Origin: Promethearchaeota archaeon | GTDB lineage: Archaea > Asgardarchaeota > Thorarchaeia > Thorarchaeales > Thorarchaeaceae | DNA: 64,000 nucleotides | Assembly: GCA_027031765.1 (NCBI GenBank) | Contig: JALVPN010000165.1 | Span: 7,993-71,992 of the forward strand | Direction of reading: 5' to 3' | Part shown: positions 42,669-60,421 of the stretch, one piece after another | How positions within the stretch are numbered: the first letter of the stretch is position 1 | Layout: each line of letters opens with the position of its first letter | The notes under the pieces: model-generated | What the model saw: only the letters and a program-made list of their open reading frames with translations | Databases searched by the model: none | Told to the model about the DNA's origin: nothing | Program-made: the position numbers and the translations under genes

Positions 42669-43386
42669 TTCCAGAACGGCCAGAGAGAGGACTACTCCTC
42701 TCTCCTCCCGTTTCTTGTAGATTGCGTCTGCTACTTGGTTACGCGCACGGCGGAACAACATTCCAGGAGTGAACAGTTTTGTGGACGGCTCTCTCACTAC
42801 GCTGCCACTAATGTCCCTGCCCGCGAATGCTGTGTACAAGGTGAACCTCCCACTCAATGCTCCCGAATTCTTGGGCTCACCTCCTTGTGAATCCACAAGA
42901 TGAACAAGAGTTCTCTTGGTGTACATTCTCTAGACTTGGCAACCTGAAACAATGGACTATGTTCGATTTCAAGGCTGAGTCTGCGTACTTCATGTACACA
43001 CCCCATTGGTAGGATTCGATATAATGCCGGGCAATTCAGGGTCTACTGGAAGAAGAACTGGTTGAGCGAGTATATGGTGTCTGAAATGAGGCTTGGGCGT
43101 TGCGTCTGCCCAGACTTCGACATGCAATCCGCCCGTCGTTTCCCCAACTAAGACAAGTAGCCGATATCAACCGCACCAATTCGGAAAAGAATGATTGGGC
43201 TAGGAGCCGCACATGTAGACCCAACCGAAATCCGAACTCAGTTTTCTGAGACTTGGCCTTTTGGATGATGGTAGATGTGCGTTTCACTGTTTTTGAGCAG
43301 ACGAAAGTCCTAAATCTGCTTGCGGAACAGGCCCACTGTGCTCCAATCATGAATTTGCACCCCAATATGGAGGGGATTCTCCTACA

Positions 43387-44994
43387 ATGAGAATTCGCGG
43401 AATCGAGGTATCTAATTTCAGGAGTCTCGTGCACTTCGCAATGAAGGATATCGGGAATTTCAACATTCTCGTCGGCCGGAACGGTGCTGGGAAATCCAAC
43501 ATTCTGGATGCAATTGATGTCTTTCTCACAAGTCTGAAACGATATCCGCAGTTTCAAGATGTGCCAGACAGTTGCTGGACAAGGCAGAGTGATTCATCTG
43601 AAATTTCGTTCTCATTTGAACTTGAGTTCACCAATGAAGAGATTGAGGTTCCTACTGACGCTGGGGAAAACAATGGTTCACCATCAACTCATAGCGTGGT
43701 CATTTCTAGAACCTTGCGTCGAGAACAAAAAGAGTGGAGTCTTCGAACCCTCAGCATCAACGACCAGCCGCTGGTGAAGGATTACCAAGAGCTTGATAGT
43801 AGCGATTCTGCTACAGTAGCGGAAGTCCTAAAGCAGATTGCTGGTGCAGTTTCGAAATCATACAGGCTACTTGGGTTCTCTAGGTTTGTCGCGCCTCAAG
43901 CCTCGACGCCCGGACAACGAGTCCCGGCGATTCCCGCGAACGTTATCAAAGGGATCATCTCACTGGAAACTGCGGAAACCTCTGAAGCAGACAATCAGTC
44001 ATACGAGTTGGAAGAGCAGTTCGAAAGAATGAGTGGTGATACGCTTGCGGTTACTGCCACCTCCATTCGCGTTCGAGAGGGACAAACAAGGATTCCTCTT
44101 GAACTTCTCGGGGTCGGGATTCAGACCACTTTGGGTATGGTACACGACCTCCTGAATCCAACTGGAGTAATTCTCATTGAAGAACCTGAGATTCACCTGC
44201 ATGCCGGTCTTCAACGACAGGTTCTTGAAAGACTGAAGGAAGTTAGTGAGAGGTGTCAAGTTTTCATTACAACGCACTCAACAATATTCTTGGATGAATG
44301 CGAATACGGCTCACTCTGGCATGTCAGAAAGACCGGTGGAGTCACGACCGCAACCCGTGTGGAAGGGCTCGATGACTTGAGAAGCATTGTCCTTGGCCTT
44401 GGCATACGGCCTAGTGATGTACTAGCGGCGAACAGCATACTACTCGTTGAAGGCCTCACCGAGAAGATTGTAATCCCCTTTTGGGCGCGCCTTGTGGGGA
44501 AGAGGTTTGAGCCTCCAAAGGTAAACATTGTTCAAATGGGTGGTGTTGGAACGGGACGCTACCATCTTCATCTTTGGAAACAGATGGTAAGTGCCTTCAA
44601 GATTCCATTTTTCATACTGCTGGACGGTGACGAGGCTGCTAGACGCGAAGCAAAGAAGTTGGAAGAAGAACATGGCGTAAATCCAAGGATGATTTACACT
44701 CTGAAGAAGGAATCAATCGAAGACTACTATCCTGATGACTTGACTATTGAGTGTCTTGAGAACATGCTTTCGCTTCCCCCAGACCAACAGCCGAGCTTGC
44801 ACGAAGAGCTACCTTCCTCAGGCAGAGCACGGCACATTGACAAGTTTATCAAGGGGCACAAGCCCAAATCTGGGCCGAACTGGAAAGTACAACTGGCCAA
44901 ATGTATGGTAGAAAAGATGAGGGCTGAGCACTTGGATGATGAAATCAGGGAACTGATACTACAAATTGATGATGTACTTGGCCAGTCATCGTAA
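43387..44994 (+). CDS. OLD-family nuclease (ABC-type ATPase + C-terminal TOPRIM)
   Basis: Walker A 'GRNGAGKSN', Walker B 'ILIEEPEIHLH', 'TTHS'. The C-terminus has 'ILLVEGLTEKIV' and 'LLDGDEA', the TOPRIM Glu and DxD motifs. It sits in a lower-GC island. Confidence 0.75.
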   Translation: MRIRGIEVSNFRSLVHFAMKDIGNFNILVGRNGAGKSNILDAIDVFLTSLKRYPQFQDVPDSCWTRQSDSSEISFSFELEFTNEEIEVPTDAGENNGSPSTHSVVISRTLRREQKEWSLRTLSINDQPLVKDYQELDSSDSATVAEVLKQIAGAVSKSYRLLGFSRFVAPQASTPGQRVPAIPANVIKGIISLETAETSEADNQSYELEEQFERMSGDTLAVTATSIRVREGQTRIPLELLGVGIQTTLGMVHDLLNPTGVILIEEPEIHLHAGLQRQVLERLKEVSERCQVFITTHSTIFLDECEYGSLWHVRKTGGVTTATRVEGLDDLRSIVLGLGIRPSDVLAANSILLVEGLTEKIVIPFWARLVGKRFEPPKVNIVQMGGVGTGRYHLHLWKQMVSAFKIPFFILLDGDEAARREAKKLEEEHGVNPRMIYTLKKESIEDYYPDDLTIECLENMLSLPPDQQPSLHEELPSSGRARHIDKFIKGHKPKSGPNWKVQLAKCMVEKMRAEHLDDEIRELILQIDDVLGQSS

Positions 44995-45503
44995 CCACTG
45001 GGTTTCCTACAATCTATGCCAAGAGTCGAACCGGATTCCAACGGCCTCCACTCGGTTCAAATGTTAGGGCACGCGCGTATCAACTTGGGAGAGCACCGAC
45101 CACCAAGTTCGGTGTTGAGTGTTGCAAAGAGAACACAGTTTGGGACGGTACAAGCCTACTCAAACCTACTCGTACCGGGTTCCTAAATGTCCAGGCCTAG
45201 GCGTGGAGTCCGTCCGAACCAGTGAACAGCTGTTTCCACTTGTTGTGTTCTGTCGTTGTCCGGCTCATTATGCGATTGCCAATGCAGCCTAGCGGCGGCC
45301 CTGAGATTCCCCGACGCACGGCCCCATTGCCTTAGGTGGATTGGTTCTGTTGGGCACATGCATGTGCCCTTGCCCTCTTGGTCATTCTACGGAGAAACAT
45401 GCATCAACACTTGCTACCCGGTCGCACTTCTGGTTTTGTTCATTGTTCCCAGCTGAACGGAACAAGACCATTCATGGTGGAGTTTCAGAGCCATAGCAGT
45501 GAA

Positions 45504-47261
45504 TCACTTCCAGCGCTTCCTTGCGTACTCAACAATCTTCCTTAGGTCATCGATGCCAGTCGTTCTAGCCCCTTCTCTGATATACAGAATCTTCTTCTGT
45601 TTCTTCAGCATCAAGACCGGTTCATCTGCCGGTCTTACGTCAACACGACAGATTTCTTTGTCGTCAACTTGTGGAAACGTGGTGCGGAAAAACTGTCGGA
45701 ACATACCTTGGACTTGGCTGTTGAACTTCTGAGTCAAGGATCTGTCAAAGGTATCGGAGCTTGGTTCGTGATGAAAGCAGGAGTAGTCTCGCTCTAGGCC
45801 AAGTATCTCCCCGTCATTCCCGACTCCGATAAGGAGTACACCGCCATCCGAGTTCATGAATGCGCAGATTGTCTTTATCACGGGGTCGTATAATTCACTA
45901 TTCTTCCCTTGGAGATTGTAGTCCCACAACATCGATGACTTGAACTCGATGAACTGGGACTCCCCCATCTCTATCAACTCCTCGACAGTGGCCCGTTGGA
46001 CTCTCTCAAGTGATGGTGCCCTTGGCCTTGTGTAGAGGTACAGTGCCGCGCATAGCACGGCAAGTGCCACGCTCCACTCGATGACGCGGTAGACAACCAT
46101 TTGCAGCCTGGTTGTGGGCAAGAATGACTTGGGCACTCTGATAATGTATCCGTTCGTCGTTCCAAGATATAGATGGCCACGATCGTATCCCGGAATGAGG
46201 ATTGACTCAAGAACTTCAGGATACCGGCCCATTGTGAGCTCTTCCCTGCTAATCATTGGAGTGACTGACTGGGCATTGTCATCCAAGTCGATGTATGCAA
46301 GTCCCAATGCTGTGACCACATACAACCGCTTGAGGTCTACATCGATGTCAATAGCGTTCACAACTCTCGATGGCAATCCGTCATCACTCGTCAGGCGAGA
46401 ACGAACTAACGTTGCGCTAGTTCCGTTCTCGTCGAAGATGAATAGTCCCTCATTTGTCCCTATGTAGATTCTATGGGTGAGTTGGTAGTAGTCTATGCAA
46501 CTGACACTTAGAGGGTTCCCTACATCGTCTTGGATATGGCTGAAGTTCACGCCGGTTCTCAGATTGAAGAACGCAAAACCCCTGCCTGTGCCAGCAAGAA
46601 GGCAGTCACCACGCACTTTGAGCGACCGTACATTGTTTGAGGGCAGACCATTCTCAGTTGTGATGTTTCGGGTTTGATACGTGGATGGAGCGTACTCAAC
46701 AACCCCGATCTGCTCGCTTCCAAGGTACAATACGGTGTCTGATCCATTACGGAATGTTTCAATGTCCCGAAACTCTACGTCCTCTCCTATGTTTGGGATT
46801 CGGATGGGATCGAATACTACTCGCTGGTTCTCATAGGACCAGTGCATCCAATAGGCTCCTCCATCTGGTCCATCCGTGACCACGTAGCTTAGCCATCTAT
46901 CCCATGTTGTTCCCATATCGTATACTCTGCTGCCACCTGTTGCACTGTCAACTGAATGAGGCCCAGATACAGAGTTGTTAGAGAGGTTGACATAGTAGAG
47001 ACCGCCTATTCCGTTGAAGGCTATCATAGACTCGGCAGCATCGAGGAATATCATTGGCCTGATGCTGTACCCCGGGAAACCATTATCTACATGTGTCCAC
47101 TGCAGGTCCTCAGAGGCTGGCTGAACAAGCCATCGGTCAACACTGGCCGTAGCAGGGAATACCACCATGAATACTATCACAAGCCTGAGGAATCGCTTGT
47201 CAGACCTTAGTTCTCCGAGTTTCGCAAACACTCCTCCTTGTGCTTTTGTTCTGCCCATCAT
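45504..47261 (-). CDS. Membrane receptor: extracellular Reg_prop beta-propeller, TM, cytoplasmic AlbA_2/Schlafen-like domain
   Basis: N-terminal signal anchor. Sequon-rich repeats carry 'ENGLPSNNVRSL' and 'SDDGLPSRVVNAI' (Reg_prop). A TM helix follows, then 'ESQFIEFKSS...ICAFMNSDGGVLLIGVGNDGEILG' (AlbA_2/PF04326-like). Confidence 0.65.
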   Translation of the reverse strand: MMGRTKAQGGVFAKLGELRSDKRFLRLVIVFMVVFPATASVDRWLVQPASEDLQWTHVDNGFPGYSIRPMIFLDAAESMIAFNGIGGLYYVNLSNNSVSGPHSVDSATGGSRVYDMGTTWDRWLSYVVTDGPDGGAYWMHWSYENQRVVFDPIRIPNIGEDVEFRDIETFRNGSDTVLYLGSEQIGVVEYAPSTYQTRNITTENGLPSNNVRSLKVRGDCLLAGTGRGFAFFNLRTGVNFSHIQDDVGNPLSVSCIDYYQLTHRIYIGTNEGLFIFDENGTSATLVRSRLTSDDGLPSRVVNAIDIDVDLKRLYVVTALGLAYIDLDDNAQSVTPMISREELTMGRYPEVLESILIPGYDRGHLYLGTTNGYIIRVPKSFLPTTRLQMVVYRVIEWSVALAVLCAALYLYTRPRAPSLERVQRATVEELIEMGESQFIEFKSSMLWDYNLQGKNSELYDPVIKTICAFMNSDGGVLLIGVGNDGEILGLERDYSCFHHEPSSDTFDRSLTQKFNSQVQGMFRQFFRTTFPQVDDKEICRVDVRPADEPVLMLKKQKKILYIREGARTTGIDDLRKIVEYARKRWK

Positions 47262-48160
47262 ACAGCCCCCAGAAACCATAGAACAGCATAGGTTGCATTT
47301 ATCGTGGCATGTAGAGCCCATGGTTGTGTCAGGTTCTCAGACAAAAGCCACACCATACCCAGCAGAATCCCTAGCCCAAACCTCGTTATGAACGCCGCAA
47401 GAACCGAACCTACCGGATCGAAGATATTACCAACGTACTGGGCGTTAGTGAACAGATGACAAACCGCAAAGAGAGAAGAAGCTAGCAACAGCCCTATGGG
47501 CTTGCTCCGGAATCTCTCGGACAGGCGCTGTTGGACTATAGCCCTGTTGACCAGCTCCTCGACAAATCCAATAATGACCCCTCCGTAGACCACTAGTCCC
47601 ATGAGCCCGACTAATCGCTCAGGGCTGGCAAGGGTTGGGAATTGGTCAATGACCGGCAACAATCGAATTCCAAAGGATATCATGATTACTACCAGCAGGA
47701 AGATAGGCAGGCTACTGGTCCTCCAAGGTTCTCCACCTCGGATTCCCAGTGATTCCAATGAGTAGCCAAAACCACGCCAGAAGATCACGGCAATCGCCAG
47801 ACCTGTAAGGAGAATGGCAATGCTGGCAGAAAGGATGTCAAGGCTTGGAAAGAAACTGAAGAACCACCATCCAACATCGAGATAGATCACTAAAGCGAGT
47901 ACTGCCTCTTCAATAGGGTTTCTAGACAGCTTCTCAGGTCGCTTCAGGTGCTGGCTGTGACTCCACAGAAGTGCGCTGCATCCAATGACATTCAATGCCC
48001 CAAGCACGACAATGTATGATTCAGAATACATGATTGCATATGCCAAACTCGAGGATGTCACCAGAGCCGCCAAGAGAATGATCGCCTTGATATCGCGAGG
48101 GTTCAGTTGAGTTTGTTGCTCCTCTGCCACCTTCGTCACCCCTGCTGGGTGACCCCCCAT
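47258..48160 (-). CDS. CPBP-family intramembrane metalloprotease (CAAX protease/Abi-like)
   Basis: Motif 1 'GFVEELVNRAIV', motif 'FAVCHLF', terminal 'HATINA'. An ATGA-type 4-nt overlap with the downstream receptor gene indicates an operon. Confidence 0.7.
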   Translation of the reverse strand: MGGHPAGVTKVAEEQQTQLNPRDIKAIILLAALVTSSSLAYAIMYSESYIVVLGALNVIGCSALLWSHSQHLKRPEKLSRNPIEEAVLALVIYLDVGWWFFSFFPSLDILSASIAILLTGLAIAVIFWRGFGYSLESLGIRGGEPWRTSSLPIFLLVVIMISFGIRLLPVIDQFPTLASPERLVGLMGLVVYGGVIIGFVEELVNRAIVQQRLSERFRSKPIGLLLASSLFAVCHLFTNAQYVGNIFDPVGSVLAAFITRFGLGILLGMVWLLSENLTQPWALHATINATYAVLWFLGAV

Positions 48161-48275
48161 CTCCCCAAAGAAAAAGCTTGTGCGTCTGAAGCAGCACCAT
48201 ACAGCTCTCGAGTTGGTGGTCTGGCGAGTCTTCCCGTGCAAAGGACTCAAATACTAAGGCAGCTTAGTACTAATC

Positions 48276-49637
48276 ATGATTAGTAAATTCATCGACCGTG
48301 ACGCCGAGCTCTCTCTGCTTGAAAAGGAGTGGAGGGGGCATGGTGGGAAGCTCTTGGTCCTGTACGGTCGAAGGCGGGTTGGCAAGACCAGACTCCTAGC
48401 TGAGTTCGTCCAAGGAAAGGATGGCGTGTTCTATATTGCGAGCGACTCATCACCGCAAGTCCAGATTGAAGAGCTCAAGACGAGAGTTGCGGACTTCCTC
48501 AACGATGCGTTGCTGAGAGACCTTGAACTCAAGAACTGGGAGCAGTTCTTTGAGTATCTTACGAGGAATCTGCCGTCCAAGAGGTTCTATCTCATACTGG
48601 ATGAGTTCTCCTATCTTGTCAAGAGCGATCGGACGATTATCAGTGTTTTGCAAAGGGTATGGGACAGAGTCTTGTCAAATTCCAAGGTCTTCTTGGTACT
48701 GTGTGGATCGGTAATGGGCCTAATGAGGGATGAGGTGCTCTCCTCGGCATCTCCTCTGTATGGTCGGCGAACAAGGGACATCCTACTGAGGGACTTGCCA
48801 TTCAAGCACGCAAGAGAGTTTGTTTCCTTCCCGTTTGCGGAGGCAATGCAGCTGTACTTTGCAGTTGGCGGCGTACCGGAGTATCTGCAGAAGGCATCAG
48901 AGTACCACAGCATGAATGAGTTTCTCAGCCGGGAGTTCTTCAGCACCACGGGATACTTCTATCGCGAGCCGTATTTCATAGTGTCACAGGAGTTCAGGGA
49001 GCTGAGAATCTACTTCTCGATTCTCAATGCTATTGCCACCGGGAGAACACGCCCGACCGACATAGCCAACTTTGTGGGGATTAACGCCCGAAGCGTATAT
49101 CCGTACCTGGAGGGGCTCATTCGGATGGACTTTGTCAAGCGGGAGATACCCGTTCTTGGGAGCCCCAAGCGAGGCGTCTACCGGATCAAGGACTCCCTCC
49201 TTGACTTTTGGTTCGGCTTTGTCTTTGGCCATCGGGATGAGATTGAGCGGGGCTCACTGAACCTAGACAACCTGGATCTGTCAGCCTACTATGGGAGGCG
49301 ATTCGAGGAGTTCGTGAGGAGTGAGGTCGTCCACCTGCTGTTCAACTACACCAAGATGGGACGATGGTGGCATCGTGGTGAGGAGATCGACATTGTTGCG
49401 GTGAACGACTCTGCCAATGAGATACTCTTCTGTGAGTGCAAGTGGAGCGACCTCAAGAAGAGGGAGGCCGAGCAACTCATTCAGGGCTTGCAGCAAAAGG
49501 CGAGGCTCGTGAGCTGGGGCACGGAATCAAGGGTGGAGAGATTTGGCGTGGTCGCACGTAGAGTGCGGGGAAAGGAGGGCCTCCGAAGTCAGGGCTATGT
49601 CGTGTACGATCTGCAGGACATCAAGAGTGTGCTGTAA
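48276..49637 (+). CDS. Archaeal ATPase (Arch_ATPase AAA+ with DUF234 C-terminal domain)
   Basis: 'FIDRDAELSLLEKEW...LLVLYGRRRVGKTRLL' and 'YLILDEFSYL'. The C-terminal region resembles DUF234. Confidence 0.75.
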   Translation: MISKFIDRDAELSLLEKEWRGHGGKLLVLYGRRRVGKTRLLAEFVQGKDGVFYIASDSSPQVQIEELKTRVADFLNDALLRDLELKNWEQFFEYLTRNLPSKRFYLILDEFSYLVKSDRTIISVLQRVWDRVLSNSKVFLVLCGSVMGLMRDEVLSSASPLYGRRTRDILLRDLPFKHAREFVSFPFAEAMQLYFAVGGVPEYLQKASEYHSMNEFLSREFFSTTGYFYREPYFIVSQEFRELRIYFSILNAIATGRTRPTDIANFVGINARSVYPYLEGLIRMDFVKREIPVLGSPKRGVYRIKDSLLDFWFGFVFGHRDEIERGSLNLDNLDLSAYYGRRFEEFVRSEVVHLLFNYTKMGRWWHRGEEIDIVAVNDSANEILFCECKWSDLKKREAEQLIQGLQQKARLVSWGTESRVERFGVVARRVRGKEGLRSQGYVVYDLQDIKSVL

Positions 49638-51622
49638 CCATTGACCCATCACGTTTCGGGAGGATGCGTTTCACGCATGGCCTATGCTCCCCGCTATCCG
49701 CAAGAACATACAGTATCACCCCCTATCCTCACTGTTGAGCTGCACAACACGCATTGGGGCAAGTGACCTCAGTCCACATGGCGGTGAGATTGAGAATCGG
49801 GAGCTACGCCTCCAGAATTGTTTCTGAGAGTCGTGGCAAGTCCTTCAACTTTGACAAGCGTTGAATTGCCGAGTCCGACCTCCACACAGTTGAAGTGGAA
49901 CACAATGGTCAGTCTTGGTATCTGCAGGTATGTCTTCCGGTGGGCTCGTCGCTTGATGGATATGTTCGTCTTCTCAAGCCACCTATCACTACTGGTCCAA
50001 TCCAACAGATTCTGACGAAGTCTATGAAGGTCAATCCAGTGAGTGGTTCACGAACACTCTACATTTGCGAGATTCGAGTCTGCAGCACAGATGCTCAAGG
50101 CAGAGTCCACTGTCACCAAGTGAAGTTCAGTGAGCCGTATCCCCCCACTTTGAGCCTCCTGTTGCCGGCTATGGTACAACATGGGGATGGTTCACCCTGC
50201 CGCTACTGACGTGTGGTCTTCCCGCGTGTCCAGAAAACCAGTATGCGGCCACACAGTACACACTAGGTGGGGTCACCGCCTGCGACGCGCGACACGGGCC
50301 ATAGGCCCCAGATATACCCGCTCACTCCACCCGGCCACCGGTGTGACCGTCCTCCGTGCCTCCAACAAACATATCCAACACCACTACCATGGTCACACCT
50401 CCTGCAAGACCGTTGTCCATAATACGCTCCACTACCATGTTAAGACTCTCGTACGGGGGCTCGTGGGCGTCCACTGGGGCTGGTAGGCCAGAACCGACAC
50501 GGATGCGCAACAGGGGGCGAAGCACAGACAGAAGAGCACTCAGACCAAGTGCCACGTGGGCGCTCTGCCTCGCCCTTGCTACTGTGTGACCACACAGGCG
50601 GGTAGATGGTGGATTGGTGTCAAGTGGCTGTTTCACCTCGGATCCCGGACTGGATTGTCGAGTGGAGCGCCCCCAGTGGGCCCCTCCCTGTGCGCCCATC
50701 CGCTCGCCCAGGCCGAGGCCGGGCTCTCGCCCTCACAGACACGCAAGCCAGTCATGTATGTCGCCCAGATGAGCAGCAGCGCACCATACTCCTCCGCACC
50801 GATAACCCGCAACCGGTCGCCCGCACTCCGCAGCACCCGAACCGCCCCCTCCAGCACCGCTACCGCACCGGCATGGTCACCACTCTCCCACTGACCGGGT
50901 CGTGTGCCAGCCTCCCAAGCCTCACCTCGAACCGCTTCAGTTTTCTCAGAGTCTCCATGAAACGCTCGTGATTGCAGAATCTTCTACGCTCCTGTTCTGT
51001 TGGCGTTTCACCCTGGTATGGCATGCAATCGTAAACGTATGTCCTCAGACGTTCAAAGCCTTCACACACCGCTTCAGAGAACTTCACGAAATCGATACGC
51101 GGCTCATTGAAACAGTGCTTGAGAACCTTCGCAAAAAAACCCCAAATCTATCATGACTGCTGCCCGGTCCAACCGCTGTTGTCCTCTAATGATATCTGAC
51201 CGCCGCCCTCTCGAACGACAGCACGAATTTTCTGTGGCGCGTTGTTGGCGCCCTGACTTAAAGGTCATTGCTGCTGAGTATCTGACGAATTCATTGCTGA
51301 CACACATGGCTCCGGACTGTGCTGCTGACGGTTGTCCATCATGTCAGTCACAGGGGCAGTCTGCATCATGTCTGGCTGTGGGAACTATGCATCTGTGGTC
51401 TCAAACCTGAGATGCACCGTTCCCCCACAGTACGGACACTCAGCGCTTGTTGGCCCCGTCCACCGAACAGTCTTGGTACTGATCTTGGCGCAACAACTTG
51501 TGCAGTATGCCGGGATGTGTGGTATCACAATCATTGGCTCTCTGCCCTTGGCAGGGGTCACGGTCCTACTCCTCACGCCCCTCGCTCTCGACTCTCTTCT
51601 TCGTCCGCCGCAGCCCATTGTC

Positions 51623-52606
51623 CTATCGGTCTGACGCGAGCCGCCGCTTCGCGATGACCGCCACAAAGACGATGGCACCCGCTGCTACGACAGTTCCTGC
51701 AGTGACGGGACCAAGCATTGGGTTGGTGATCTCACTAGTGTTGTTTGCTGTCGTTGTGTCTGTTGTTTCGGTCGATGTTGTGGTGCTGTTCGTGGTCACA
51801 GTGTCCCATATGGACTGCTGGAGAATGAAGAGCAGCGTCCCATTTGACGTATAGTGAAAGTATGTCGGCCAAGCCTGTATGCTCTCATGATCCTGTGCTG
51901 TGAGGTTGAATGCTGCAACGGACCATGTTGGCCTCAAGAGCATCTCCTTTGTGTAGAAAGGTGCCTTGTATATGCAGAACATGGTCGCCGACTCCGTCGG
52001 GTCAGTGAGATACTCTGGGTCCGCACCCGGATAGTACATCGGATAGCCCGGAAGTGGTCTGTGAGTGGTCGGACTGATGAGCACCAGTGAACGAATCCTT
52101 GCCTCGGCCAATGTAGTCCTGAGAACCTCTACGTGAGAGCACTCCAGATCATCCAGTGTGACTGTCTGGGTCCTGACCACTCTCCTAGTCAGGGTCCCAT
52201 TGTCTTGAGAACAGCGGTACGTCACGATCAGTTCGATGAAGTACGTCTGATTGAAGCCCCATACAAACAAGGGATGTTCTCCAGGCAGAGAGTAGCCTGC
52301 AATCTCAAAACCCGAGCTCAAGTGGGAGAGTGGCCGAACTGCATCAACAAGTGACTGGTTGGTCATCAGGTCTGGTACTCTCTCTTCCATCATTTCCGTC
52401 ACATTAACTACTTCGTACTCATACGACGCTCCGTCTATGGTGATATTGAGCGAGGCTGAAGGCCCCACTTCTGCTGTGTCACAGTATGTGCCATCAACTG
52501 TATGCATTGACTCCGAAGCGACGGGATACGGCAGAATGGTGGTTAAGGTCAACACCAGAGCAAACATGAGTGCAATAGCCCATTGTCTGTACACGTACAC
52601 TCGCAT
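51623..52606 (-). CDS. Secreted Thr-rich surface protein with C-terminal TM anchor (copy 2)
   Basis: Signal peptide. It shares 'TIDGASYEYEVVNVTEMMEERVPDLMTNQSLVDAVRPLS' with the 53110-54105 gene. A Thr-rich linker precedes the C-terminal TM plus 'KRRLASDR'. Confidence 0.55.
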   Translation of the reverse strand: MRVYVYRQWAIALMFALVLTLTTILPYPVASESMHTVDGTYCDTAEVGPSASLNITIDGASYEYEVVNVTEMMEERVPDLMTNQSLVDAVRPLSHLSSGFEIAGYSLPGEHPLFVWGFNQTYFIELIVTYRCSQDNGTLTRRVVRTQTVTLDDLECSHVEVLRTTLAEARIRSLVLISPTTHRPLPGYPMYYPGADPEYLTDPTESATMFCIYKAPFYTKEMLLRPTWSVAAFNLTAQDHESIQAWPTYFHYTSNGTLLFILQQSIWDTVTTNSTTTSTETTDTTTANNTSEITNPMLGPVTAGTVVAAGAIVFVAVIAKRRLASDR

Positions 52607-52612
52607 ATCCTC

Positions 52613-53017
52613 CTAGTACCGGTTTGGCCCTACGTAGGCCACCATGTGCCTGACATCGCCGCCGTACCTGGGGTGGACGGGGTTGTACTGAGATGGGAGA
52701 AGAAGCCCGTCTGTGGGATCCTTGTCGTATGGGGAGTTGGATTGACCGTCGAGGCCATCGTCAAGGCAAGACCATATCTGGAAGAACCTGTAGCCAAAGT
52801 TCACACGGTAGTATGCTGTCTGGTTCCAGAGGTGAAGCGTGGGATCCGCGTGGATCCATGTCCACTCTGAGCCATCATGCTGTTCCCACGTATTCCAGAA
52901 CCAATCAAACTCCTGCGGGTCGTATGAGTCCCAGCCCCACAAGGTGAGAGAACTCAACCAGTTGCTGTCCAGCACTGTCTTCGTCTTTCTCTCCACGTTT
53001 ATCTGAATGGCGGTCAC
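52613..53017 (-). CDS. Truncated paralog (C-terminal domain only) of the transglutaminase-like protein
   Basis: The 134-aa ORF is about 75% identical to the last ~110 aa of the 54112-55599 protein ('FDWFWN.WEQHDGSE.TWIHADPTLHLWNQTAYYRVNFGYRFFQIWSCLDD'). It lacks the catalytic core. It may be a pseudogene fragment or a free-standing domain. Confidence 0.4.
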   Translation of the reverse strand: MTAIQINVERKTKTVLDSNWLSSLTLWGWDSYDPQEFDWFWNTWEQHDGSEWTWIHADPTLHLWNQTAYYRVNFGYRFFQIWSCLDDGLDGQSNSPYDKDPTDGLLLPSQYNPVHPRYGGDVRHMVAYVGPNRY

Positions 53018-53109
53018 TTCACACCGCTCCTATACCACAATGCACAGTTGTGTTCGCCAGTGGACTCACCTGACATTGCGTGGCCTATGAGTGCAATGGT
53101 ACTGCAGCG

Positions 53110-54105
53110 TCATGAGTTTCCTCGCCTCGACCTTGCCAGTATTGCGACTGCCATGAAGGTGACGGCCACTGAAACAGTTCCTACAATGACGGGATTAGGC
53201 AATGGGTTGACAATCTCACTAGTGTTGTTTGCTGTTGTTCTGTCTGTTGTTTCGGTTGATGTTGTGGTATCACTTGTTGTTGTGGTACAATTCGTGACTG
53301 GTGGGCAGAGTGGAATCTGTTCAAGGATAAGGAGTAACGTTCCGTTTGATGTATAGATGAAGAGTACTGGCCAAGCTCTTGTGTTGTTGTCTAGTGGTGC
53401 CGTGAGGTTGTAAGCCATGACAAACCATGTCGGTTCAAGAAACATCTCCTTTGTGAAGAAGGACGCCCTGTACATGCAGGCCCAACCCCACTCACTCGGG
53501 TCGGTGAGGTTCCCTGGGTCACGGCCGAGCTCGTAGAGTGGGTAGCCTGGAAGAGGTCTGTGAGTGATTGGACTGACGAGCTCTAGCGAACGATTCCTTG
53601 CCTCGACCAATGTAGTCCTGAGAATCTCTATGTGAGAGCACTCTAAATCATCCAGCGTGATTGTCTGGATTCCAACCACTCTCCGTACAAAGCTCCCGTT
53701 GTCTTCGGAACAGCGGTACGTTACTACCAGCTCGATGAAGTCTGTCTGATTGAACCCCCATACGGAGATGGTGTGTTCACCTGGCCAGTAGTAGCCCGTA
53801 CCTGCAAAGCCAGAACTCATGCCTGAGAGTGGCCGAACTGCATCAACAAGTGACTGGTTGGTCATCAGGTCTGGTACTCTCTCTTCCATCATTTCCGTCA
53901 CATTAACTACTTCGTACTCATACACTGTTCCGTTTATGGTGATGTTGAGCGAGGGCGAAATGCCCGTGTCTGCCTCGCCACTCTCCTTGCCACCGCTTGT
54001 TGGGGGTGAATCTGGGGCAACGGGATATGGTGAAACGGCAGCCAATGCCAATAGTAGAGTAACCATGAGCACCGCAACCGGGTATCTGAGTATGTACATT
54101 AACAC
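53110..54105 (-). CDS. Secreted Thr-rich surface protein with C-terminal TM anchor (copy 1)
   Basis: Signal peptide 'MLMYILRYPVAVLMVTLLLALAAVSP'. Many sequons, 'TTTSDTTTSTETTDRTTANNTSE', C-terminal TM plus 'RSRRGNS'. Confidence 0.55.
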   Translation of the reverse strand: MLMYILRYPVAVLMVTLLLALAAVSPYPVAPDSPPTSGGKESGEADTGISPSLNITINGTVYEYEVVNVTEMMEERVPDLMTNQSLVDAVRPLSGMSSGFAGTGYYWPGEHTISVWGFNQTDFIELVVTYRCSEDNGSFVRRVVGIQTITLDDLECSHIEILRTTLVEARNRSLELVSPITHRPLPGYPLYELGRDPGNLTDPSEWGWACMYRASFFTKEMFLEPTWFVMAYNLTAPLDNNTRAWPVLFIYTSNGTLLLILEQIPLCPPVTNCTTTTSDTTTSTETTDRTTANNTSEIVNPLPNPVIVGTVSVAVTFMAVAILARSRRGNS

Positions 54106-54111
54106 ATCCTC

Positions 54112-55599
54112 CTAGTACTGGTTTGGTCCTGCGTAGTCTATTGTGTACTTGACATCCCCTCCATACTTGGGGTAGAGCGAGTTGTAGTGATATGGGAGGA
54201 GAAGCCCATCTGTGGGATCCTTGTCGTAGGCGGAAACAGATGGGTCGTTGAGTTTGTCGTCGAGGCAAGACCATATCTGGAAGAACCTGTAGCCAAAGTT
54301 CACACGGTAGTATGCTGTCTGGTTCCAGAGGTGAAGCGTAGGATCCGCGTGGATCCATGTCAACTCTGAGCCATCATGCTGTTCCCACATATTCCAGAAC
54401 CAATCAAACTTCTGCGGGTCATCTGGATCCCAGTCCCACGAGGTGTACGGGTTCTGGTATTCGAGTTCCCAGACTCTCCATGCGTCAACACGGGAGTACT
54501 GTTGCGCATTCTCATGCCACAACAGGCAGTTCTCCCACCATTGGTTCACAACGCTCCATATCTCACACCACGCGTGGGAGCTGGCTCTCACGTCTGTACC
54601 AAACATCTGTCGAGCCGGTATCCCCATTGACCTCAGCAATGAGATCTCCATATTCGATATTTCATCGCACATTCCCTCCCATCCTTCAGATATGATTCTC
54701 AAGTCCGACATTGAACACTCTGTCCGGTAAGCTGGCGTACCACTGCGAATCATCTTGTGATCTACGCAATACGTCATAATGACTGCTGCCCCACTGACAT
54801 AAGGCACACGATAGTCGTCAAGAAGATTTGCTGCGGCCCACCTAATGTTCCAGTCATCGCTGTGGAACAGGGCATACTGGTCTGGAATACCGAATCCATC
54901 GATGCTCCTGAGGCCCTCCCAGTAGTAGTCTGAATTGTTCGAGGCCTGCGACATGACATCCGCTGGTGGGGGAGTTGGCAGGTCGCTCGAACCAAAGGTC
55001 TGCACGAAATTGTATCCAAAGTCCTTGTAGAACACTGCAGCACCAACGCGCGCCACACCTCTCTTCACACCCACCGATGTCAGTGGAACCGTCACCTTCA
55101 GGTCCTTGGAACCGTAACCGTGTATGACACGCATTGAACCTGACACCGAGAACTCCTCTCTGTAGACCTCACGGGTTTCAAGGTCATACCCCTCGAACGT
55201 TACTGGGTAGGTTCCGGGTCTGTCACTGTCGGTCACACACTGGAACCTTATTGTCAGAGTCTTGCCTCTAGTCCAGACACTCGGCACTGTTACCCAGAAG
55301 TAGACCTCATGAAATCCCCTCGTGTTCGCATTATCGATGAGTCCGGCGCTTCTCAAGCGGGTGATAATCTCCTTGAAGCCCGGCATGGGGGCGGTCTTAG
55401 TATGCACGCGACGCAGGTCGACTCCCATGGACGCAAGGATGTCCTCGGGGACATTTGTCGCGACAAGGCATGGTCCAAGATCCTCATCAAGGAACACGGA
55501 TGGCGCCTCTCTCAGTGGTCTTGTTGTCCCTCTCGGGACCGGACAATCAGACGAACCGGCAAGAGGCACTACCTCTTGGGGGGGGGAGTGCATGAGCAT
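54112..55599 (-). CDS. Transglutaminase-like cysteine protease superfamily protein; N-terminus apparently frameshifted
   Basis: 'EGMCDEISNMEISLLRSMGIPARQMFGTDVRASSHAWCEIW' is the transglutaminase-core Cys...His arrangement. A signal-peptide-like segment is encoded in another frame just upstream, across a G9 tract. Confidence 0.65.
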   Translation of the reverse strand: MLMHSPPQEVVPLAGSSDCPVPRGTTRPLREAPSVFLDEDLGPCLVATNVPEDILASMGVDLRRVHTKTAPMPGFKEIITRLRSAGLIDNANTRGFHEVYFWVTVPSVWTRGKTLTIRFQCVTDSDRPGTYPVTFEGYDLETREVYREEFSVSGSMRVIHGYGSKDLKVTVPLTSVGVKRGVARVGAAVFYKDFGYNFVQTFGSSDLPTPPPADVMSQASNNSDYYWEGLRSIDGFGIPDQYALFHSDDWNIRWAAANLLDDYRVPYVSGAAVIMTYCVDHKMIRSGTPAYRTECSMSDLRIISEGWEGMCDEISNMEISLLRSMGIPARQMFGTDVRASSHAWCEIWSVVNQWWENCLLWHENAQQYSRVDAWRVWELEYQNPYTSWDWDPDDPQKFDWFWNMWEQHDGSELTWIHADPTLHLWNQTAYYRVNFGYRFFQIWSCLDDKLNDPSVSAYDKDPTDGLLLPYHYNSLYPKYGGDVKYTIDYAGPNQY

Positions 55600-55789
55600 C
55601 AGGACTGCTCAGTGCAGGCATCCCGGCAAAGCTAGAAACCACGAAGACACAGGTCACCACACAGGTGACCAGATACCGTTTGACAAGCATCCTACTCACG
55701 ATCTCACCGACAGAGTATTGCTGACAGAGCATATAAGAGTTCTGTGGCCAGAGCAGGAGATGGGGCCGACTGGTTCTCTCTGTTGGCAC
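55547..55789 (-). other. Out-of-frame N-terminal exon-like ORF encoding a signal peptide; likely 5' part of the transglutaminase-like gene
   Basis: 'MLVKRYLVTCVVTCVFVVSSFAGMPALS' is signal-peptide-like. It overlaps the 54112-55599 ORF across the homopolymer G9 at 55578-55586. Removing one G fuses the frames. Confidence 0.45.
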
Positions 55790-55941
55790 TCTCGGGACTC
55801 AACGCTTATCATATCTAGGCGTCTGGTGGTTCATTTTCCCTCACTGGCCTCTTCGGTCCGGACACTCTCTCCGTGGGCGGACTGACTGCGCCACCACAAG
55901 TCTTAATGATATGCCAGAGGATCGTGGTGACGGTGTCCAGC

Positions 55942-56406
55942 ATGAGAACCAAGTCGAGATACCCTGAGGTCATCGAATATCATGCCACATCAGACTGGGA
56001 TGGCAAGACTGGTGGCACAGCCACTGTGGGCGAGGGACGCACGATTGTCTACGACACACCGACGACCTACGGTGGGAACGGTCAGGGAATCTGTCCTGAC
56101 GAGATGTTTGTGGCTGCCATGCTCGGGTGTCTCAACAACACGTTCTTGGACTTCCAGCGCCGCTTTGAACTCGAACTAATCTCCATGAGGCTTGAGGGAA
56201 AGGCAGTGGCGCGGTTTGACAGTGAGGGTTATACAGTCACCGGGTTGCAGGTGCGCGACGAGGTTGTTGTGGAATAGGGTGGACTTGAAGTCGCCGAGCG
56301 GTGCGTTCAGCTGATGAAGAAGTACTGCCACCTGTCGCGCACGATCAAGGGCTGCCTCCCGTTTGAGTTCGATGTCAAGGTGCGCGAGGTCAAGCAGGAG
56401 TCTTGA
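55942..56406 (+). pseudogene. OsmC/Ohr-family protein interrupted by an in-frame TAG
   Basis: 'GGNGQGICPDEMFVAAMLGC' is the OsmC core. After TAG at 56275-56277 the same frame continues 'GGLEVAERCVQLMKKYCHLSRTIKGCLPFEFDVKVREV', matching the OsmC C-terminal 'KYCP.S..LKG' segment. Confidence 0.55.
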
Positions 56407-56701
56407 TCCTCAGTTCGTCCATCAGTTCAAGTATCTTCTCCATGTACCGTGTCATGTTCGTCCAGTAGGCCCCCTGAAAGTATACTGCATTGCATCTCTC
56501 GCAGAGCCAGAACACATCATAGTGTTTGTAGGTCTGTTCGAACACGAGATCCTTGACCCTTCTCCGTTCGTCACCCCGGAGTTCCACAAGCTCGCCATTG
56601 CACTTGGAACATCTCGCCCTTGACTCGTCTATCACCGGTTCTATCCCGAACTCCATGAACACCTTCGCCACGCCCTCATCTACACTTCCCCTCACAAGCA
56701 T
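56390..56701 (-). CDS. Mut7-C-like zinc-ribbon domain protein (probably truncated)
   Basis: 'CSKCNGEL...YDVFWLCERCNAVYFQGAYW' matches the C-terminal zinc ribbon of Mut7-C/DUF82 proteins. The N-terminal PIN-like half is absent. Confidence 0.4.
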   Translation of the reverse strand: MLVRGSVDEGVAKVFMEFGIEPVIDESRARCSKCNGELVELRGDERRRVKDLVFEQTYKHYDVFWLCERCNAVYFQGAYWTNMTRYMEKILELMDELRIKTPA

Positions 56702-57587
56702 GGCTGGAACACCGCTGATCGTGCTCTCTATCTCCAGCTGACTCACGAATGCTTGCAACTAGGTCCTCCCGCCCCCATGTCCTGCCCCTAAGCTCTCCAA
56801 GCGCTCGTCGCAACAAGCTTCTCTGTTTTACTGCATTCATGGGAATCTTGAGTATCGAGAAGTAGTCTCTGGTTGCAAAGCTGTTGCATCTGAGCCTGAG
56901 TGGCCAAATGCCATCGTTGCCACCCCGATTCACAGAGAACACGACAGCACGGTCTCCGAGATCCTCCTGCATCGCCACGTATTCGTCATGGGGATCCACA
57001 ATCACAATGGCAGCGCCGAGTTCCAACATCCGAGACGTAATGACTGCCACCGTGTTGCCCTTCCCACCACCTGTAAGCGACAATACTGCAAGATGCCTTG
57101 TAACAAGCTTTCCCACATCAAGTTTCACTCTTACGCCCTCATGTCCCATCAAACTTCCAATCTCGATATGACCCACCGAAAAGATCCTGCTCAGCAGTCC
57201 TGATGATGCTCTTGTAACCCTTGCTCTAGGCCGTGGCGAGAACCTAGGTGACACAATCTTGCCGTCTTCATCGATGTAGCCCACAACCTGTGCCTTGGCT
57301 GTAAGGACTTCGCCATCATGCAGGTCGCTGATACTAAGAAGAGTGGCGAACTCCTCTGGCCCCGTCAGGATTGACTCCGGCATGTTGAGGTTGACAAGTC
57401 CTATGTCTGTGACACGGGCCAACACTGGGTCGGTGACGTTTCGATTTGCGTATGTAATTGCCAAGTAGTCCCCCAGTCTGAGGGGATTACTCTCAGCAGT
57501 GGCTGCATCAAGTCTGACAACTACCTCCCTAGGTGTTGTGGTTCCCAAGAGGTTTCCTATCACGTGCTCCTTCGTCACTATATACAA
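56676..57587 (-). pseudogene. HerA/DUF87-like ATPase, N-terminal fragment only
   Basis: HAS-barrel-like N-terminus ('VVGYIDEDGKIVSPRF'), Walker A 'LTGGGKGNT', 'IVIVDPHDEYV'. The protein then ends after about 300 aa, with no Walker B or C-terminal domains. Confidence 0.45.
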
Positions 57588-57590
57588 CTC

Positions 57591-57899
57591 CTATCCGAAT
57601 CTCTCTCCCCTTTGCGTCCGCAGAATCACTCTTGCCGCCCTCATATCCATTCCAGCTACCTTTGCACGTATCTGGTCTATTCGTCGCTTTGCCTCTGCCT
57701 TGCTAATCGTGGCGCGTTTGTGCACTACATGAGAGTATGTGAAGTATCCATTCATGTCATGTGCTAGCACGAGGAATCTCTCAATCTTCTCGAGCTGGTC
57801 TGCTTGCAGCCTGGGAAAGTCAACGGCAAATGGCTGACCATGTGGTTTCAAGATTCCAAAGACCCTGCAGGCCTCACCAATCAGGCGTTGTACTGTCAT
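57591..57899 (-). CDS. Hypothetical small protein
   Basis: 102-aa ORF between the HerA fragment and the nuclease-like gene. No recognisable motif. Confidence 0.3.
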   Translation of the reverse strand: MTVQRLIGEACRVFGILKPHGQPFAVDFPRLQADQLEKIERFLVLAHDMNGYFTYSHVVHKRATISKAEAKRRIDQIRAKVAGMDMRAARVILRTQRGERFG

Positions 57900-58213
57900 C
57901 GACGCATCATGTGTTGCATAACGACGTTTTCCTTCGTGTCAATACGGCACTTGTGACGCTTCTTGATTACCACAATCACGACAAAGCACAATGACGATTG
58001 CCGCTCCTATGTAGAGCCACGGAATGGCCTGCTCTGTTGTTCATCCCCTTGTGAGACTACACGGATCTGTGTTTCGTTCCACCTATGGAGGACTATTCCT
58101 GCTGATGCGGACAACCAGCCATCTGTCTGTCCTGCTAGCCAAGGAGTACCCTCGACCCCGGTCTGGTGTGCAACTGCAGGACAGGACAGGACATGACTGG
58201 CTGTTCATCAGGA

Positions 58214-59155
58214 TTAGACAATCTCATGAATGGACCTGAACTCGTCATTGCTTTTCCAGCCGAGGTTCAGTGGGACTTCTAGGTCTCTTCGCAGCCGCTC
58301 CACGTATCTCAAGTCTTGCTTTTCCGGTCTTCTGTCGAGGACAATCAACCACCGGTCGTATGGTTCGCGTCCGGGGTAGAAGTTGTACTCAAAGACCTGC
58401 CCCATCGCCTCACGGATTGAACGTGTGACGCTCAAGCCGTACACGACTTTGAGTTCTGCCATGTGTGTTGTGCTGTCAGTCCTGAAAGCAACATCAATGC
58501 GGTTGTGTTCTAACCGGATGTCCTCTGCTCCCCGCTCCACCAGCCAGTCATAGAGACTGTTTGCGAGTCTACGGTGCCTCGGCTCGATTATCTTCATCAG
58601 TGCTGGAGTCACTCTCGTATAGTCCGACTCTGAGAGGTACTCATGAGTTCTAGGTCTCAGTGAGAACAGGCGGTCAATGTCTGGAATCCTGTCTGCCTTC
58701 CTGAGCTTGAACCTGAACACGCGTTGCCTCTCGCCATTCGGCATTCTGCGGGATGACTCGAAGTCCCTCTCGATACCTGTGATCCGCCAGATACCTTCGA
58801 ACCTCCATGGGTCGCCCTTCCTCTCACCTTTGAACTTCACAAACAGGTACACTGGGAACTCTTGGTAGTCCACCATGATCCTGTTGCCATAGCTCAGTCT
58901 CTGGTGCCCTTTTTCCGGGAGCCCGTCGCCTATGTAGTAGAACTGGTCGCTTCCTGGCTCGTACTCGTCGTCGTACAGTGCCTTAGCAAGGTTCATCTTG
59001 ATGAGGATGGCCTCCGGACTGTCCCTTGGTGCCAGCACTATCCCCCGCTGGAAGTTGCCCCCTGGCCTAGGCTCATACCCTGCAGCCAGTGCCATCTCGC
59101 TGTAATCGTAGCGTTCGCCCTCAATGAAGCCTCTCAGTTCCAACTTGGCCATCAC
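58214..59155 (-). CDS. Putative restriction endonuclease (N-terminal recognition domain + C-terminal PD-(D/E)xK)
   Basis: The C-terminal 'RIDVAF...THMAELKVVYG' fits the D...ExK nuclease motif. It is divergently arranged with an adjacent DNA methyltransferase. Confidence 0.5.
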   Translation of the reverse strand: MMAKLELRGFIEGERYDYSEMALAAGYEPRPGGNFQRGIVLAPRDSPEAILIKMNLAKALYDDEYEPGSDQFYYIGDGLPEKGHQRLSYGNRIMVDYQEFPVYLFVKFKGERKGDPWRFEGIWRITGIERDFESSRRMPNGERQRVFRFKLRKADRIPDIDRLFSLRPRTHEYLSESDYTRVTPALMKIIEPRHRRLANSLYDWLVERGAEDIRLEHNRIDVAFRTDSTTHMAELKVVYGLSVTRSIREAMGQVFEYNFYPGREPYDRWLIVLDRRPEKQDLRYVERLRRDLEVPLNLGWKSNDEFRSIHEIV

Positions 59156-59392
59156 CCCTTCTATAACTACTAGTAATGTGCTGCTGTGATATGAATCAAT
59201 CCTTGATATCGTCCCCAGTGCGTTTCGATGAACACTGCATTAGTTTCGGTCTTGGTCGCAGTACAGTTCCCACAAGATGACCGACCATGCCGGCTGGGTC
59301 AGTCCGGCAAGTGCAGGGAGGTTTCACCGGGGCCCAGCACTGTCCTGTCGAGTGTGCTGACCCGTTAGGACGGTACCAACTGCAAGAGTGAA

Positions 59393-60421
59393 ATGCAGGT
59401 GGACTCCTCTTACACCCGGACAAAGCCCAATACTTGCAAAAGATGTGTGGATGAAATGGTTCCGGAGCCGCAGGAGAGGTCGAGACGACGGTACATCCCG
59501 CACCTTGCGGCGTCCCGTTTCCGGCCTACAGAGGACTGGACGCACAGTGAGGCGCGAGACGCATTCTTAGCTGCCCGGTTCGACATTGATGTGGACACCG
59601 TGCACTATGAGGACTGCATCGAGGGCATGGAGCGCCTGCCGGACGGGTGTATTGATGTTGTGATTGCTGACCCGCCGTTTGGGATTTCATTCAGCGGGAA
59701 AGAGTCCCTGTACAACCGGGACTCAGGGCTGGTCGTCGATGGCTACCATGAGGTCGAACGGGACTATGCCGAGTTCACGGTCGAGTGGGTCAGCAAGCTA
59801 CCCCGGCTCCTCAAGGAAACGGGTTCGGCATGGATATTCAGCGGATGGACGAACCTGCGTGATGTGCTCAATGCTGTTGCGTTGAGTGGCCTCACTACGG
59901 TCAACCACATCATCTGGAAGTATCAGTTCGGGGTGTTCACACGCCGGAAGTTCGTGACGAGCCACTATCACCTGCTCTTCCTTGTCAAGGATCCGAAGCG
60001 CTACTACTTCAACAAGATACAGCACTATCCCCTCGATGTCTGGGAGATAAAGCGGACATACATGCGCGGCCAGGTCAAGAACGGGACGAAACTGCCCGAG
60101 CAACTCGTGATGCGCTGCATAGACTTCACATCACGCCCGGGAGACCTGGTACTTGACCCGTTCATGGGCAATGGTACCACTGCTGTGGCATGCAAGGGCT
60201 CCTTCAGACATTTCATCGGGTTTGAGATTAACCCGAACATGAGGGGGATTATAGAGTCGAACCTCTCCCTGATTGGGCCTGGCGACCTGTACGTCCCATA
60301 CTCGGCACGGAGTGACCCCCTTGTTGACAGTGCTAAGAAGAAGTTCTTTGAACCGGAGGGCCCGCACCGGGACCGCAAGGGCGACCAGTCATCCATAGAA
60401 CACTGGACAGGCCCTGATTGA
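59393..60421 (+). CDS. DNA methyltransferase, beta-class (N4-C/N6-A family, PF01555-like)
   Basis: Motif IV 'VVIADPPFG' precedes motif I 'VLDPFMGNGTTAVA' (the beta permutation). The start is uncertain and may be an internal Met. Confidence 0.8.
   Translation: MQVDSSYTRTKPNTCKRCVDEMVPEPQERSRRRYIPHLAASRFRPTEDWTHSEARDAFLAARFDIDVDTVHYEDCIEGMERLPDGCIDVVIADPPFGISFSGKESLYNRDSGLVVDGYHEVERDYAEFTVEWVSKLPRLLKETGSAWIFSGWTNLRDVLNAVALSGLTTVNHIIWKYQFGVFTRRKFVTSHYHLLFLVKDPKRYYFNKIQHYPLDVWEIKRTYMRGQVKNGTKLPEQLVMRCIDFTSRPGDLVLDPFMGNGTTAVACKGSFRHFIGFEINPNMRGIIESNLSLIGPGDLYVPYSARSDPLVDSAKKKFFEPEGPHRDRKGDQSSIEHWTGPD

Follow-up and report, generated by a model that had tools for sequence, protein, structure and literature searches.

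A stand-alone OLD-family nuclease gene with a probable antiviral role in a variable island of a Thorarchaeales genome

What does a solitary gene for an OLD-family nuclease do in the genome of an Asgard archaeon, and by what route did it arrive there? The gene in question occupies positions 43387..44994 (+ strand) of a 64,000-nucleotide stretch, hereafter the window, of a Promethearchaeota archaeon of the order Thorarchaeales (GenBank assembly GCA_027031765.1, contig JALVPN010000165.1, positions 7,993 to 71,992 of the forward strand). We find that it encodes an intact OLD-family ATPase-TOPRIM nuclease, which by its gene context is a class 1 (stand-alone) OLD with a nuclease module of class 2 type. 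Our overall reading, which we regard as probable, is that of a stand-alone OLD, horizontally gained within a variable defence island, that most likely serves as a single-gene antiviral nuclease.

The reading frame is unbroken, starts with ATG and codes for a protein of 535 aa, the coordinates taking in the stop codon; a GGAGG stands 12 nt 5' of the ATG. Because the protein aligns with the N-termini of its homologues from residue 1 onward, the annotated start is correct. An antisense open reading frame (ORF) of 173 aa (43036..43557) overlaps the start of the gene; it has no Pfam match and was taken as spurious. The original prediction, made from the letters of the window and a list of its ORFs, had recognized an ABC ATPase joined to a TOPRIM domain from five motif strings. 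All five, GRNGAGKSN (aa 29-37), ILIEEPEIHLH (aa 262-272), TTHS (aa 295-298), ILLVEGLTEK (aa 351-360) and LLDGDEA (aa 411-417), are present at their places, an agreement far beyond chance, and the architecture itself is borne out by Pfam, PADLOC, a profile search of the PDB and a fold search, which agree with one another. Pfam matches AAA_15 (4.3e-28), AAA_21 (4.5e-24) and SMC_N, and finds the OLD-like_TOPRIM domain PF20469 at aa 348-415 with 41.2 bits against a gathering cutoff of 23.2. In the comparison with profiles of GajA, OLD and AriAB, the GajA and Old models of PADLOC match the protein at 1e-32 to 1e-30, those of GajA at the top. NCBIfam yields sub-threshold matches only, to the effectors of retron Eco8 (76 bits against a cutoff of 250), PtuA and MADS3. 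When a profile built from 12 relatives was searched against all PDB sequences, the best match was 6P74, the class 1 OLD of Thermus scotoductus (TsOLD), at 1.5e-34; GajA followed at ~5e-18, with retron Ec83/Eco8, PtuA and AriA further down. In accordance, an AlphaFold model of the full-length protein (mean predicted local distance difference test score, pLDDT, 81.3) finds 6P74 as its best Foldseek match (1.2e-17), followed by chains of GajA.

Close relatives are few. When 1.84 billion representatives were searched exhaustively with phmmer, 20,298 proteins were found at E <= 1e-3 and 155 at E <= 1e-30, the nearest of them about 40% identical (39-40%), and a word-indexed search added one further relative, 51% identical, on a 2.5-kb metagenome contig. 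Both of these nearest relatives sit on uncultured metagenome contigs. None of the names listed for its 120 best matches is that of a eukaryotic protein. By these comparisons the protein is a divergent member of a modest subfamily. Another Thorarchaeota metagenome-assembled genome also carries an OLD homologue (L007:9185-11137), 36% identical over the C-terminal two thirds, in which an in-frame stop just before Walker B marks either a pseudogene or a sequencing error.

The chain divides into three parts. An ABC-type ATPase domain (aa 1-325; 43387..44361, + strand), which accounts for the AAA_15, AAA_21 and SMC_N matches and bears an insert between Walker A and Walker B, is followed by a linker and TOPRIM core (aa 326-442; 44362..44712, + strand) that contains the span of PF20469, and then by a C-terminal helical domain (aa 443-535; 44713..44991, + strand) for which fold and profile matches indicate class 2 type. 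Residue roles were taken from TsOLD (PMC7049728), with equivalences drawn through the profile alignment to 6p74, and conservation was counted in an alignment of 98 subfamily members. The ATPase half retains Walker A (G30-S37, with K36 aligned to TsOLD K34 and present in 94 of 94 non-gap sequences), the signature G242-x-G244-x-Q246, Walker B (E265 and E266, TsOLD E276; 95 and 97 of 98), the D-loop histidine H272 (TsOLD H283; 94/98) and the H-loop T296-H297-S298, whose H297 (TsOLD H310) is likewise kept in 94/98; each of the ATPase motif residues listed is conserved in at least 90% of the relatives. The TOPRIM core supplies E355 for metal A (TsOLD E377; 94/98), E359 as the metal B acid (TsOLD D381; D or E in all 98) and the DxD motif D413-G-D415. 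Its first aspartate (TsOLD D431) is present in 95/98 and its second (TsOLD D433) in 45/98; many relatives have G, H, N or S at the second position, and D-G-D is found in the protein itself and in its two closest relatives, P0002 and P0003. The helical domain opens with S443-I-E445, a putative metal B S/T-x-E within the motif IEDYYP, whose E445 would correspond to TsOLD E480 and is conserved in 95/98. Further on it carries a tryptophan-lysine pair, W499 (93/98) and K500 (89/98), the latter a putative catalytic lysine.

It is this last region that departs from the class 1 structure. In TsOLD and P2 Old a basic catalytic residue, R487 and K550 respectively, lies seven residues past the metal-B glutamate (PMC7049728). 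The protein described here has L452 at that position, and lysine stands there in only 15/98 relatives. TsOLD has a basic residue at about +7 and lacks a helical domain at its C-terminus, structural traits that are not those of this protein; that trait set derives from one structure and lies outside the context-based class definition. A profile of the C-terminal half built from 26 sequences matches the class 2 OLD of Xanthomonas campestris (6NJV) at 9.6e-8, that of Burkholderia pseudomallei (BpOLD, 6NK8) at 2.5e-7 and TsOLD at 5.4e-5; a single-sequence phmmer search of the same half against the PDB was too weak (E ~0.6). A second, statistically weak stretch of the profile alignment pairs the tryptophan-lysine motif with K190 of the 6NK8 chain. 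In that chain numbering E28 is E400, so that K190 is BpOLD K562, the class 2 catalytic lysine in helix alpha5H (PMC6755086). The spacing is consistent with this pairing, at 55 residues between E445 and K500 and 54 between E508 and K562 in BpOLD (PMC6755086). A model of aa 326-535 (pLDDT 88, predicted TM-score, pTM, 0.85) superposes over its full length on 6njw, 6njx, 6njv and 6nk8, with TM-scores of 0.66-0.67 by query (TMq) and 0.68-0.70 by target (TMt) and root-mean-square deviations (rmsd) of 3.5-4.2 A, against a TMq of 0.43 and an rmsd of 8.5 A on TsOLD 6p74. By this fold match the C-terminal region belongs to the class 2 type, in which a helical domain follows the TOPRIM, and K500 would be the lysine that the helical domain contributes.

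OLD classes are set by gene context (PMC10568477, PMC6755086), and here the context is one of isolation. Upstream, beyond a non-coding spacer of 718 bp, lies a core acyl-CoA dehydrogenase (ACAD) gene whose stop is at 42668; downstream, beyond a spacer of 509 bp (44995..45503), a convergent SLFN/AlbA_2 gene runs towards it, and the OLD gene has no co-oriented neighbour. Because neither a helicase or reverse transcriptase gene nor one for a separate TOPRIM stands beside it, the OLD is class 1 by definition. The gene downstream is the convergent SLFN/AlbA_2 gene and not the adjacent helicase of class 2; domain scans found no UvrD, PcrA or Rep domain in the island or among the scanned long ORFs of the window, in agreement with the earlier statement that no UvrD-like helicase (GajB) adjoins the gene. 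The adjacent reverse transcriptase and msr/msd non-coding RNA of class 3, the retron effectors, are likewise missing, with no reverse-transcriptase domain in the island and no Rfam retron match. No split TOPRIM partner adjoins the gene and no AriB-type TOPRIM is seen in Pfam or among the listed PADLOC matches, as class 4 (PARIS AriA/AriB or their fusion) would have it, and the gene shows neither the vertical inheritance nor the membrane-protein operon of class 5 (Cran1). Of the two assignments first offered, a class 1 OLD or a fused PARIS-like protein, this solitary setting upholds the former. Class 2 is published to nest inside class 1 diversity, and the mixed anatomy found here fits that picture.

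How, then, did the gene come to lie where it does? Core GC is 0.580 +/- 0.016 (41 windows of 2 kb across the upstream 42.7 kb), against 0.479 for the OLD gene, and GC at third codon positions (GC3) is 0.485 against 0.63-0.78 in core genes, which makes it the most atypical gene of the window and confirms its predicted low GC. The drop takes place within ~150 bp of the ACAD stop. A low-GC 5' flank of ~680 bp had been described; the low GC holds (0.496), and the length is corrected to 718 bp (42669..43386), a spacer that forms the left edge of the foreign-composition block. At 43-45 kb the tetranucleotide distance from the core has a z of 10; it does not fall below 5.6 up to 50 kb, is near-native at 49-52 kb and rises again to z 3-5 at 52-59 kb. 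Composition is atypical in the 42.7-50 kb range for which a profile had been proposed, and the block runs on past 50 kb; with a length of ~17 kb, an end at about 59-60.4 kb and two sub-blocks, it is probably composite, and its content is multi-system.

Comparison with related genomes points the same way. ACAD orthologues at 80-92% identity all come under the name Candidatus Thorarchaeota, and in the three related lineages of Thorarchaeota whose neighbourhoods were compared no OLD gene follows the ACAD orthologue. Past its ACAD the 92% relative has a ParE toxin pair, a VapBC pair and then CoA transferases; the 83% relative has unknown genes there, together with proteins of the PD-(D/E)XK and PLD types, and two other relatives have contigs that end just beyond ACAD. 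The DNA similarity of these relatives to the window ends at the ACAD stop codon. The slot is variable, because the relatives hold different cargo there and none of it is an OLD, and the post-ACAD position (loci L090-L095) is a hotspot for variable accessory or defence cargo. A conserved core-genome setting for the gene was not found downstream of ACAD in the relatives, and the suggestion of horizontal acquisition is sustained by the foreign composition together with the absence of the gene from the corresponding slot in related Thorarchaeota. As to a signature of insertion, the window has no tRNA genes, no Rfam matches and no integrase among its annotated ORFs, and we found no convincing flanking direct or inverted repeats and no att-like repeat. 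The same population has been assembled a second time (GCA_029855965.1, contig JAGSHO010000102.1, L087), and that assembly is 100% identical over 44414-59637.

What would such an enzyme do? The protein has an ABC ATPase at its N-terminus in which every catalytic motif is kept, and a TOPRIM domain with the acidic cluster of metal A and the putative one of metal B, followed by the helical domain of class 2 type. No partner gene adjoins it or is conserved in relatives, its gene is foreign in composition, and the same slot of related genomes lacks it. As a single-gene antiviral nuclease, and by analogy with characterised OLDs, it would dimerise through the insert of the ATPase domain, and ATP binding and hydrolysis would gate the nuclease. 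Cleavage would proceed by two metals, metal A held by E355, D413 and D415 and metal B by E359, S443 and E445, with K500 of the helical domain stabilising the transition state. Characterised OLDs differ in what they cut: P2 Old cleaves the tRNA anticodon stem, and TsOLD, BpOLD and Vibrio cholerae OLD (Vc OLD) nick or degrade DNA. Upon sensing of infection, the archaeal enzyme might nick or degrade viral DNA like the latter three or, alternatively, cut tRNA like P2 OLD, and virus replication would be blocked either way. Archaea are not known to have RecBCD, so that the RecBCD-linked trigger of P2 OLD cannot apply here. That class 1 OLDs are able to defend alone is established for Vc OLD (PMC12392090) and P2 OLD (PMC12445682).

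Several observations weigh against this antiviral reading. D415 is poorly kept across the subfamily, so that metal A chemistry may differ among relatives, and the mappings of S443, E445 and K500, which draw on conservation, on spacing, on a local alignment that is statistically weak and on the fold match of the domain as a whole, are putative. Contig JAGSHO010000102.1 ends at 44414, inside the OLD gene; the presence or integrity of the gene may vary within the population, as strain-level variation at the edge of the island. The defence-type neighbours, with PDC-S27, HerA, a type II methylase and an SRA-like protein among them, favour the antiviral reading, but as circumstantial evidence. Cran1, moreover, which is the one archaeal OLD to have been studied, conferred no detectable protection against viruses and has a role in the cell cycle (PMC12796447).

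This last case supplies the main rival, in which the gene would be a housekeeping OLD, a chromatin or cell-cycle nickase-ATPase like Cran1 of class 5 in Sulfolobales. Cran1 demonstrates that an archaeal OLD-family protein can nick DNA in a non-defence role (PMC12796447), and defence is shown for no archaeal stand-alone OLD. Class 5, however, owes its definition to a vertical descent within Sulfolobales and to a conserved operon with a membrane protein (PMC12796447), whereas the present gene is compositionally foreign, is missing from the same slot in relatives, has a patchy set of closest homologues at <= 51% identity, and stands without a co-oriented neighbour in the midst of defence-type genes. 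We consider a housekeeping role unlikely.

The class 2 fold of the C-terminal region, with its helical domain and lysine, raises a different question: is the protein an orphaned part of Gabija, a GajA-type class 2 enzyme whose GajB was lost or is encoded elsewhere, and which would be inactive or incomplete alone? GajA gives the top PADLOC models, and a UvrD helicase lies two genes downstream of one relative, P0010. Yet the island and the scanned long ORFs of the window hold no UvrD, PcrA or Rep domain, class 1 TsOLD is the nearest match of both the entire chain and the ATPase half, 535 aa is short for class 2, and all catalytic motifs are intact. Stand-alone contexts are seen in at least 10 relatives, which argues for a helicase-free lineage over recent loss, and no helicase adjoins the gene in the neighbourhoods of relatives examined. 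An orphaned Gabija enzyme accordingly has a small chance of being the right description.

The relatives also speak to whether the gene works together with others. Their contexts are unrelated to one another: an LRR-MBL neighbour, a position between a histidine kinase and a response regulator, the vicinity of integrases, that of Cas6 and a PLD protein, and a GHKL ATPase neighbour. The first of these neighbours is an 879-aa LRR and metallo-beta-lactamase protein (L001:2572-5211) that lies 10 nt 3' of the 39%-identical homologue P0003, and the last a 650-aa GHKL (HATPase_c_3) protein (L021:11849-13801) that lies 4 nt 3' of a Haloarchaeobius OLD. A multi-gene system could in principle be formed here with the CPBP-SLFN/AlbA_2 pair of the island, described below, or with a small gene or an RNA that has escaped recognition in the spacers. 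The long non-coding spacers on both sides (718 and 509 bp), the tightly linked partners of some relatives (LRR-MBL at P0003, the GHKL ATPase in L021) and the need of OLD classes 2 to 4 for partners (PMC10568477) speak for it. In the window, however, the neighbours are convergent or separated, and the partners of the relatives are not found by tblastn, by which neither the partner genes nor the 5' flanks are similar between relatives and window. Nor do the spacers offer a candidate. The 5' spacer contains short ORFs only, without a homologue in the flanks of relatives (tblastn), neither spacer has an Rfam match or a conserved ORF, and RNA fold z-scores are not significant (-1.4 in the 5' spacer, -1.0 in the 3' spacer). 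We hold a multi-gene system to be quite improbable. The 509-bp spacer contains a perfect 18-nt palindrome, GGGCACATGCATGTGCCC, at 45352-45369.

A fused PARIS-like (AriA-AriB) protein, the second of the assignments first offered, is effectively refuted: PADLOC AriA models do match the ATPase region (7.7e-30), but such ABC ATPases all cross-match, and the TOPRIM half matches only GajA and Old and no AriB among the 25 listed of 30 PADLOC matches, the full protein matches PF20469 and has no Pfam match to an AriB-type TOPRIM, AriA reaches 1e-9 against 1.5e-34 for TsOLD in the PDB profile search, and in fold the C-terminal region matches those of class 2 OLDs.

The remainder of the atypical island (45504..60421) is given here as context only, with no working link to the OLD shown. 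Nearest to the OLD gene, a 605-aa membrane protein (45504-47321, - strand) has a C-terminal SLFN_AlbA_2 domain behind a large N-terminal region without a Pfam match, and is overlapped by 64 nt by a CPBP/Rce1-like intramembrane protease (47258-48250, - strand). The pair (45504-48250) looks like an operon, and no PADLOC model matched it. On the opposite strand follows a protein with archaeal ATPase_2, winged-helix and DUF234 domains (48276-49637, + strand), which matches the PADLOC candidate system PDC-S27 (5.6e-43); the same protein is also recorded in Logan and ENA assemblies. A spike of GC (0.60-0.67) at 50300-50900 contains small ORFs only (67-125 aa), with no Pfam or Rfam match. Beyond it lie two tandem paralogues of 327 and 331 aa (51623-52606 and 53110-54105, - strand), without a Pfam match and with ~78% nucleotide identity over ~1.29 kb, and, adjoining them, a transglutaminase-like protein (54112-55599, - strand). 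The distal end of the island holds a Mut7-C protein together with an unusually short HerA/DUF87 ATPase of 303 aa (56390-57587, - strand), an SRA/ScoMcrA-like protein (58214-59155, - strand) and a type II-like N6/N4 DNA methylase (59393-60421, + strand), a cluster (56390-60421) that may be a modification-dependent restriction system or another defence module.

How does the protein compare with the OLDs already known? It shares with the class 1 enzymes (TsOLD 6P74, P2 Old and Vc OLD) the single gene, the joining of ABC ATPase and TOPRIM and a chain of ~530 aa. TsOLD is its best match both by sequence profile and by fold of the whole chain, and the two have the variant ATPase motifs in common: the Walker B glutamate, the D-loop histidine and the H-loop histidine. 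Sequence identity, however, is only about 17%, and TsOLD has no C-terminal helical domain and relies on the basic R487 at +7 (K550 in P2 Old), whereas the present protein has L452 there and a helical domain that bears the conserved W499-K500. Its host, an Asgard archaeon, also sets it apart from the characterised class 1 OLDs. To the class 2 OLDs of Burkholderia pseudomallei (6NK8) and Xanthomonas campestris (6NJV/W/X) it is linked by a C-terminal region that superposes over its whole length at an rmsd of ~4 A and by a lysine at the position and spacing equivalent to K562, and to Bacillus cereus GajA by the top PADLOC models; it differs from class 2 and GajA in being shorter and in an ATPase half that is nearer to TsOLD than to GajA. 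Like Cran1 of class 5 it is an archaeal OLD-family ATPase-TOPRIM protein, but Cran1 is vertically inherited, essential and encoded in a membrane-protein operon (PMC12796447), and the gene here is foreign, patchy and unaccompanied.

Much of the setting is known already. Archaeal and Asgard OLD homologues have been catalogued, with OLDs of Heimdall- and Lokiarchaeota labelled Class 1, Class 2 and U4 in Dataset EV1 (PMC12796447), and defence by class 1 OLDs is established in bacteria; among class 1 OLDs, it is shown only for P2 Old and Vc OLD. Nucleases of this stand-alone kind are rare; a cited DefenseFinder figure places class 1 OLDs in 0.45% of genomes. The OLD gene is otherwise the expected kind of gene in the expected kind of place, and an intact, horizontally gained Asgard copy is a reasonable candidate for testing defence by an archaeal class 1 OLD. 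The combination of a class 1 context with a class 2 structure may define a recognisable subfamily, and such mixed anatomy shows that OLD classes drawn by gene context and the structural types do not coincide neatly. The catalogued Asgard class 1 sequences are much longer than the present protein between Walker A and Walker B; the Heimdallarchaeota entry, as counted in its sequence, has ~350 aa there, against ~230 aa here, and a 2026 preprint ties one eukaryotic OLD-like cluster to Promethearchaeota. A bolder proposal, which we put forward tentatively and regard as doubtful in its full extent, is that the protein belongs to a separate lineage of stand-alone OLDs, comprising ~155 clusters at 50% identity and marked by the signatures I/L-E-D-Y-Y-P and W-K, in which a compact TsOLD-like ATPase would be joined to a helicase-free class 2 TOPRIM and helical nuclease; Asgard archaea would put it to use as a single-gene antiviral system, and it might be related to the eukaryotic cluster linked to Promethearchaeota. 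If such a helicase-free lineage is real, the helical domain and its lysine would predate the partnership with GajB or be independent of it.

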